A stretch of DNA of 28,425 nt, from the IMG/VR virus record IMGVR_UViG_2619619134_000010; one strand, given 5' to 3'. A program made the translations under genes and the position numbers. A model generated the notes under the pieces. It ran no database searches and was not told the origin of the DNA. It was given only the letters and a program-made list of their open reading frames with translations. Position 1 is the first letter of the stretch. The number at the start of each line of letters is the position of its first letter. The stretch comes from a virus (lineage: Duplodnaviria; Heunggongvirae; Uroviricota; Caudoviricetes). This document shows, one piece after another, positions 27,534-28,425 of the stretch.

Positions 27534-27734
27534 ATGTATCGAAACATACGGTGCCGACATTGTAACAAGCTACTGGCACGAGCCAGCTTCAGTTATCTGG
27601 AAGTTAAATGTCCGCGCTGTAAAACCCTCAATCAAATCACATCTCAGAGCGCCACAGAGCACCCCACATACACAAGGAAATCCTGTCGTGGGGAACAGAA
27701 AGCAAGTTACATCCCGTATCATCAGCACGCCTGA
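27534..27734 (+). CDS. com: Com, zinc-finger translational activator of mom
   Basis: [30 protein letters not shown]... matches Mu Com (MKSIRCKNCNKLLFKADSFDHIEIRCPRCK...) including the CxxC...CPRC zinc finger; AGGAGG 10 nt upstream of ATG 27534. Confidence 0.85.
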
Positions 27735-28425
27735 ACTTATTCACTATAACGACAATATCGTCGGTTATGGCTCCCGTGAGTTACGGGTTGAGACAATAAG
27801 TTGCTGGCTGGCCCGGCTGGTCGTCGTCAATAAACATTACAGCCATCGTTTCGTAAATAATTCCTACCTTCATCTGGGCATATTTTCAGAACGGGAGCTG
27901 GTTGGCGTAATGCAATGGGGTTATGCCCTTAATCCAAACAATGGTGCACGCGTCGTAACTGGCACGCAGAACCGCGAATATATGGAGCTTAACCGGTTAT
28001 GGCTGCATGACTGTATGCCGAGAAACTCCGAATCAAGGGCAATCAGTTACGCGCTCAAACTAATCAGACAACTTTATCCGCAGGTGCAGTGGGTTCAGTC
28101 GTTTGCAGATGAGCGTTGTGGCTGTCTTGGTGTCGTGTACCAGGCAAGCAATTTTGATTATGTAGGCAGTCATGAAACAACATTCTATGAACTTGATGGC
28201 GAGTGGTATCACGAGATTTGCAAGAATGCAATCAAACGAGGAGGACAGCGAGGTGAACATCTGCGGGCTAATATCGACAGAGCCAGTGTTCATAAATTCC
28301 GTCAGTTTCGTTACATCCGGTTTCTGGACAAGAGAGCCAGAAAACGCCTTAACACAAAGCTATTCAAAGTCCAGCCTTACCCAAAACCACAAACAGTTAA
28401 AACTGGTTTGAAAGAGAGTGAATGA
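27688..28425 (+). CDS. mom: Mom-like DNA modification protein (adenine acyl-modification, anti-restriction); start uncertain (GTG 27688 preferred, within long ORF 27493..28425)
   Basis: ORF overlaps the 3' end of com in another frame as in Mu; about 245 aa from GTG 27688, which has AAGGA 9 nt upstream; stop codon is the last triplet of the window. Confidence 0.65.

Follow-up and report, generated by a model that had tools for sequence, protein, structure and literature searches.

A com-mom anti-restriction module that is probably the right-end late operon of a Mu-like transposable Escherichia coli prophage

The com-mom module of phage Mu is a well-studied anti-restriction hypermodification system, the chemistry of which became clear only in 2026. 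In Mu, Mom takes glycine from Gly-tRNA(Gly) and attaches it to adenine N6 in double-stranded DNA, and an on-base rearrangement yields 6-NcmdA. The donor of what was formerly an enzyme of unknown donor is now described, residues W48, H58, Y59, R111, S124, D149, R151, Y159, and W181 are reported as important in the Mu protein, being needed for activity or lining its active site, and the protein has an HTH-like insertion at 175-209 (PMC13219725). Com is an RNA-binding translational activator in the literature (PMC6483171, PMC3299994, PMC3378877). The SELEX consensus of Mu Com is GAGNNCC(N)2-3GAGNNCC, and the start codon of Mu mom is a GUG located within a translation-inhibition stem-loop (TIS) (PMC6483171). 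Control by Dam, OxyR, and C has been documented for Mu (PMC3378877). Homologues of com that precede methyltransferases other than Mom, with possible Com sites, have been published for B3, FluMu, Pnm1, and Sp18 (PMC3299994).

The DNA analysed here is a stretch of 28,425 nucleotides from a tailed phage, referred to below as the window. A preliminary description had placed a com-mom module at its right edge, recognising Com by its zinc-finger sequence and reading the downstream ORF as overlapping com in another frame, as mom does in Mu. Both genes were confirmed by the analysis. The com gene occupies positions 27534-27734 of the plus strand (ATG 27534, TGA 27732-27734) and encodes a 66-aa zinc-ribbon protein, whose role by family is translational activation of mom. 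A Shine-Dalgarno sequence, AGGAGG, can be read at 27518-27523 (plus strand), 10 nt before the ATG, and the corresponding GGAGG/GAGG column is conserved when the locus is aligned with that of Mu and four further com loci. In a profile search, Com matched Pfam PF10122 (Zn_ribbon_Com) with 48.2 bits against a cut-off of 22.9 (E=7.5e-13). Protein alignment revealed 45% identity to Mu Com, and all four zinc cysteines are kept (C7, C10, C26, and C29, aligned with Mu C6, C9, C26, and C29). Judged by these matches, the 66-aa product is a member of the Com family; by analogy with Mu, it would bind RNA and activate mom translation. The com coordinates are the same as those of RefSeq WP_014334043.1 (E. 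coli, Com family). The RefSeq label for the 27534-27734 product, "Com family DNA-binding transcriptional regulator", is probably misleading, since the published role of Com is RNA-binding and translational.

The mom gene extends from a GTG at 27688 to a TGA at 28423-28425 (plus strand), in the +1 frame relative to com, which it overlaps by 47 nt (27688-27734), compared with 50 nt in Mu. As the preliminary description had noted, the last three bases of the window are the mom stop codon. The 245-aa product, by family a GNAT-fold, Gly-tRNA(Gly)-dependent adenine N6 aminoacyltransferase of DNA momylation and anti-restriction, matched Pfam PF25680 (Mom) over profile positions 1-202 of 202, with 261 bits against a cut-off of 27.1 (E=7.8e-78), and phrog_1384, "Mom-like DNA modification protein", with E=2.8e-83. 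The profile search proposed in the preliminary description thus places the product in the family that it had named. No NCBIfam model for Mom was found beyond a chance 14-bit match. The Com and Mom profile matches lie far above curated thresholds and are not due to chance.

The alignment of the window Mom with Mu Mom extends over 229 aa, contains no gaps, and gives 78% identity; the window Mom also matches the solved Mom structure, PDB 8BV8, with E=2.4e-123 (78% identity to chain 8bv8_A). Each of the nine residues listed above, given in the numbering of the 241-aa Mu Mom (window numbering +8), is identical in the alignment of the two proteins. Position 124 is an engineered Ala in 8BV8 and a Ser in the window Mom. 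Since there are no gaps relative to Mu or 8bv8_A in the HTH-like insertion (Mu residues about 175-209), the alignments indicate a GNAT fold with the Mom-specific HTH-like insertion. By sequence, then, the downstream product is a Mom family member; that it forms 6-NcmdA is extrapolated from Mu.

The preliminary description had left the mom start codon undecided. GTG 27688 is supported by several comparisons as the counterpart of the Mu GUG: the Mu context is GTG GGA AAA GAG and that of the window is GTG GGG AAC AGA; RefSeq WP_000528246.1, whose coordinates are the same as those of mom, also starts at GTG 27688. In 44 distinct com loci, sequence is conserved up to the GUG (...GAGCACCCCAC-N20-GUGGGGA) and then diverges into Mom, C5-methyltransferase, or N6-methyltransferase ORFs. 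The RNA of all enterobacterial-type groups reads ...GAG..CC-N3-GAGC(A/C)CCCCAC-N20-GUGGGGA, and similarity ends a few bases past the GUG; identity to the com/C5-methyltransferase cassette of LC727895 likewise stops at 27701.

A longer Mom, made from an in-frame upstream start (ATG 27526 or GTG 27493) and escaping control by TIS and Com, would be compatible with the mom frame being open through the whole of com (27493 to 28425, 310 aa), with the location of ATG 27526 after the AGGAGG at 27518-27523, and with the Mu reference record (NC_000929), which annotates mom 10 codons upstream of the GUG. However, ATG 27526 lies only 2 nt past the Shine-Dalgarno sequence, the Pfam Mom profile covers the GTG form only from residue 31 onwards, Mu Mom can do without its 10 extra residues (PMC13219725), and RefSeq uses the GTG. 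In the LC727895 element (locus L002), which has 94% DNA identity to the window, the same frame contains a stop codon, and the ORF there (4018-4182) ends before the start at 4264. Since the extension back to 27493 is interrupted by a stop in this relative, it lacks conservation, and it was rejected as a real feature. We regard a longer Mom as scarcely credible and take GTG 27688 as the mom start in what follows.

A second point left open by the preliminary description, which had suggested RNA folding around the GTG, was an inhibitory stem unfolded by Com. The window contains one perfect match to the SELEX motif, the putative Com-binding site GAGCGCC-ACA-GAGCACC at 27647-27663 (plus strand). When both strands were scanned, it was the only match in the window (0.06 expected). 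The site could form a weak hairpin with pairs 27649/27662, 27651/27660, and 27652/27659; one pair of the hairpin is a C·A mismatch in the window, and RNAfold favours a 2-bp alternative. In the homologous four-pair hairpin of 10 distinct com loci, 85% of cells were paired, with G-C/A-U and U-A/C-G exchanges, and only one of 500 shuffles paired as well; locus L079 was left out of this count, as its Com site was misaligned by MAFFT.

Immediately downstream, a TIS is predicted at 27662-27693 (plus strand), with arms CCCCAC (27662-27667) and GUGGGG (27688-27693). Its 3' arm contains the mom start, and its inner pairs cover the GG of the mom Shine-Dalgarno sequence, AAGGAA, which can be read at 27674-27679 (plus strand), 8 nt before GTG 27688. 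The TIS is present in both the MFE and the centroid structures. In a model of a 276-nt transcript, its six pairs have probabilities of 0.98-1.0, and the unpaired probability of the GUG is 0.00; that of the Shine-Dalgarno sequence, which lies in the TIS loop and is partly paired, is 0.53. A 60-nt element with the TIS folds more stably than 193 of 200 shuffles (z=-2.1), while a wider stretch of 91 nt has an ordinary folding energy (z=-0.73). The stem anticipated in the preliminary description is therefore predicted, and it would sequester GTG 27688 and part of its Shine-Dalgarno sequence. The same architecture is predicted for Mu and for six other com loci, among them L078, the methyltransferase-linked groups, and one locus whose stem differs in sequence. 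This last belongs to the distantly related L079 group, where CUUACCUG/CAGGUAAG is predicted at the same place and would likewise sequester the Shine-Dalgarno sequence. No Rfam family was found for the Com site or the TIS, the only hit being a sub-threshold chance match to IS102.

The 5' arm of the TIS directly follows and overlaps the Com motif, so that a putative cognate RNA target would lie directly 5' of a predicted stem sequestering the downstream start. Because the last two C's of the motif are also the first two bases of the arm, binding of Com should compete directly with formation of the stem. The main TIS stem is a case of conservation rather than covariation, since no variation is seen in it within the subfamily. 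The same bases code for Com residues EHPT and make up the first Mom codons, and this coding role could explain the conservation. Conversely, conservation of the EHPT residues in the tail of Com may be imposed by the RNA, because they are encoded by GAGCACCCCAC; the C-terminus of Com is reported to be disordered and not required for binding (PMC6483171).

The geometry of the region also suggests a mechanism in which Com plays a minor or non-essential part in the window variant. The com ORF encloses the entire TIS and continues for 47 nt from the mom GUG to its own stop; as the mom start is inside com, ribosomes reading com could melt the stem without Com, and the Com hairpin is weaker than in Mu. 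Yet the geometry is the same in Mu, where Com is reported to be essential for mom translation (PMC3378877) and to bind the hairpin beside the TIS (PMC6483171). The perfect bipartite Com motif, unique in 28 kb, also speaks against such translational coupling, as does retention of the motif in com loci whose Com proteins are only 57-62% identical. We consider coupling unlikely and favour opening of the stem by Com.

The region upstream of com, 27439-27533 (plus strand), is a putative promoter of the Pmom type with operators. Position 27439 is the left boundary of the conserved com cassette, where 93.9% DNA identity to the Mu-like phage in Stx phage LC727895 begins. No σ70 consensus promoter was revealed by a promoter scan of the plus strand before com, which fits the expectation for an activator-dependent promoter. 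A weak -10-like sequence, GATAAA, may be read directly at 27495-27500; because a consensus promoter was not detected, the -10 and the transcription start can be placed only by inference.

A perfect 9-bp inverted repeat, AATCGATCG-N7-CGATCGATT, was detected at 27466-27490, with nine pairs and no strand assigned. It contains two Dam sites, GATC 27470-27473 and GATC 27483-27486; given the weak -10, the palindrome would span roughly -41 to -17. The core CGATCG-N7-(C/A)GATCGAT is invariant in six aligned loci (the window, Mu, and four further com loci) and recurs in most of the IMG/VR com loci; the Mu repeat is AATCGATCG-N7-AGATCGATT. We equate the window palindrome with GATC sites II and III of Mu Pmom. 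Of the three Mu GATC sites, two have equivalents in the window, with an identical 13-bp register and within the same palindrome, and GTATC stands where site I would be. The distance from the last GATC to the com ATG is 51 nt in the window and in most com loci versus 78 nt in Mu, and the promoter alignment contains a 42-nt gap relative to Mu.

The C-activator site of Mu is TTAT-N6-ATAA, located between the GATC cluster and the weak -10. A TTAT-N6-ATAA box was not found upstream of com in the window, nor is there room for it between the palindrome and the -10. Since a Mor/C-family gene exists in the prophage, activation may use a site other than the Mu C box. A shared activator box was sought, and there was no obvious similarity to the lys promoter of the sister prophage. 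Given the differences from Mu in GATC number, spacing, and C box, the Mu scheme of transcriptional control cannot be taken over unchanged; for the window com-mom, late timing and regulation by Dam and OxyR would hold by analogy. The compact promoter is the commonest form among com loci.

For comparison, 80 com loci from IMG/VR (L006-L085), with 38 distinct Com proteins, were assembled. The downstream gene encodes Mom at 31 loci, a C5-cytosine methyltransferase at 10, an N6-methyltransferase with DPPY...FxGSG motifs at about 35, and a Dam-like enzyme at three. Com homologues precede at least four unrelated DNA-modifying enzymes, with the junction at or just after the start codon. In the LC727895 element, the enzyme ORF (4264-5316) encodes a C5-methyltransferase. 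Mom and C5-methyltransferase partners alternate within two separate Com subfamilies.

We propose, with less than even confidence, that the 263-bp unit at 27439-27701 is a self-contained, portable "safety catch" that recombination, with its junction precisely at the start codon, has placed upstream of four or more DNA-modifying enzymes that are unrelated to one another and potentially toxic (Mom, C5-methyltransferase, beta-class N6-methyltransferase, and Dam-like methyltransferase), with a Dam-sensitive palindrome inside the core promoter (about -41 to -17) and a simpler logic than that of Mu Pmom. The unit comprises the compact GATC-palindrome promoter, com, the Com site, the TIS, the GUG, and the first four or five codons. 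If the proposal is true, the transcriptional logic differs from, and is simpler than, that of the textbook Mu Pmom, in which the palindrome lies upstream of the activator site.

The last 2 kb of the window (26400-28425) are 100% identical in at least 14 complete E. coli genomes, which come from unrelated sources and carry the region at different chromosomal sites; some match to the region was found in 233 of 5426 E. coli genomes. The best overall relative, NZ_OZ547136.1, is 99.5% identical over 96% of the last 25 kb of the window. Its prophage carries, in order, repressor-side genes, transposase, AAA ATPase (B-like), Kil, Gam, a Mor/C-family activator, lysis, head, tail, baseplate, tail fibre, invertase, and com-mom, followed by dcyD. 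The right end lies 128 nt past the mom stop. The prophage disrupts the host gene dcyD, whose 3' portion follows this right end and whose 5' portion is found at the opposite prophage end. Comparison with intact dcyD gave the junctions ...ACCTACA|TGTAACC... and ...GCGCTATA|TACAACAGG, and revealed a 4-bp target-site duplication, TACA (5 bp in Mu); three TTTGATAC repeats are present at each end. The preliminary description had expected the right end of the prophage just beyond mom, and it is indeed found there in E. coli genomes that are 100% identical over the last 2 kb. The window's own contig is expected to continue past 28425 for about 128 nt ending ...GCCGCGCTATA and then to enter host DNA. 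We conclude that the region belongs, with high probability, to a Mu-like transposable prophage of E. coli and is the com-mom late operon of its right end.

The termini were read beyond the window (L003 14027-14158, L004 13200-13500, L002 5430-5490, and L086 60-90). The termini TGTAACC...GCGCTATA occur in two independent insertions, in dcyD of NZ_OZ547136.1 and in Stx1 phage LC727895, flanked by the 4-bp duplications TACA and AGAG, respectively, compared with 5 bp for Mu. The right terminus of the lineage is TA-3' rather than CA-3'.

Several other features of the window were observed. A 3.4-kb insert (24145-27277) separates the Gin-like invertase gene (23487-24059) from com. It encodes a 684-aa protein with a SASA sialate O-acetylesterase domain and DUF6645 (24145-26199), DUF1378 (26344-26526), DUF826 (26562-26816), and, on the minus strand, a 97-aa ORF of no family (26984-27277). 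By domain content, the insert resembles the NanS-p/DUF1378/DUF826 block of lambdoid Stx phages (NanS-p: PMC10462455); it had no close DNA relative among deposited phages. A 1.35-kb tail-fibre segment (22074-23425) is inverted relative to the otherwise 99.5% identical prophage of NZ_OZ547136.1. Since the segment adjoins a resolvase-family invertase gene, we read it as a G-segment-like invertible host-range switch in the other orientation. At the left edge, positions 1-416 (ca. 416 nt) did not align to NZ_OZ547136.1 at the blastn threshold used, and 417-2979 are 99.96% identical, which suggests a locally divergent segment of the lysis region.

Lack of one of the three Mu GATC sites and of a Mu-type C box, together with the failure to find a consensus promoter, could be read as decayed regulation next to intact ORFs, that is, as a silent relic in a defective prophage that is never expressed. 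We judge this very unlikely. Both ORFs are intact, with all functional residues present, and the same compact promoter is the commonest among com loci. The 2-kb region is identical in the at least 14 E. coli genomes of unrelated source and different chromosomal site described above, the prophage has a complete set of Mu-like genes, its ends are intact and flanked by a target duplication, and the invertible segment is found in both orientations. The mechanism that we propose for the module is as follows.

A single transcript, starting in the roughly 95 nt upstream of com, would carry both com and mom. Its transcription would probably be off until late, through an activator-dependent weak promoter and Dam-methylation-sensitive binding at the GATC pair (27466-27490). 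From this transcript, com would be freely translated from its strong Shine-Dalgarno sequence, and mom would be silent by default, because its start codon and part of its Shine-Dalgarno sequence would be locked in the stem-loop at 27662-27693. Com, as a zinc-ribbon RNA-binding protein, would bind the bipartite GAGNNCC-N3-GAGNNCC hairpin at 27647-27663; since the motif ends with the two C's with which the stem begins, binding should open the stem and expose both the Shine-Dalgarno sequence and the GUG. Mom, with Gly-tRNA(Gly) as donor, would then attach glycine to the N6 position of adenines in double-stranded phage DNA, and the adduct would rearrange to N6-carbamoylmethyl-adenine (6-NcmdA), blocking many restriction enzymes. 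In this scheme, Com binding and opening of the stem, the chemistry, late timing, and Dam/OxyR control are taken from Mu.

The locus belongs to a known system. It is a bona fide example of Mu com-mom, RefSeq already names both proteins, and com with other enzymes has been published; all that is mildly new is the compact form of the promoter and the clean break of the shared com cassette at the start codon. An intact copy of the system is carried by a lineage of Mu-like prophages that occurs in a few percent of the E. coli genomes sequenced, and the analysis yields, as a by-product, a firm start codon and a map of RNA elements for the window variant. A natural Com site that matches the in vitro SELEX consensus perfectly may be of use with Com/com-hairpin RNA tethers, and natural com cassettes with different enzymes could guide the engineering of Com-gated expression of toxic genes.

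The closest described system is Mu com-mom (NC_000929 Mup54/Mup55; PDB 8BV8), which has the same protein families in the same gene order at the right end of a transposable phage. The window shares with it the +1-frame overlap (47 nt, 50 nt in Mu), a GUG start within a stem of the CCCAC/GUGGG type that immediately follows the Com hairpin, paired GATC sites upstream in a AATCGATCG-N7-(C/A)GATCGATT repeat, and a Mom that is 78% identical with all functional residues kept. There are also differences. The two Com proteins share only 45% identity, no similarity is detectable between the com genes at the DNA level, and blastn similarity to Mu begins at 27737. The window TIS has six pairs and a 20-nt loop, whereas the Mu loop is 11 nt; the window Com site fits the SELEX consensus better than the Mu site itself, and its hairpin is weaker than that of Mu. 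Upstream, the window has two GATC sites instead of three, located 27 nt closer to com, and no TTAT-N6-ATAA C box. The window Mom has 12 extra C-terminal residues, a 3.4-kb insert lies between invertase and com, whereas gin is adjacent in Mu, and the right end is 128 nt past the mom stop in the E. coli relative of the window compared with 115 nt in Mu. The modules of com with a methyltransferase in other Mu-like prophages (the element within Stx phages LC727895/LC727881, FluMu HI1522.1-HI1523, Pnm1, and Pseudomonas B3 ORF47-48) share the Com family and the cassette logic, and the LC727895 element has 94% DNA identity to window positions 27439-27701, covering the promoter, com, Com site, TIS, GUG, and first codons. 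In these modules, however, the regulated enzyme is a C5-cytosine or N6-adenine methyltransferase, while in the window it is a true Mom. Finally, the E. coli RefSeq proteins WP_014334043.1 and WP_000528246.1 are identical to the window Com and Mom, in products as well as coordinates, in the genomes that are 100% identical over 26400-28425.
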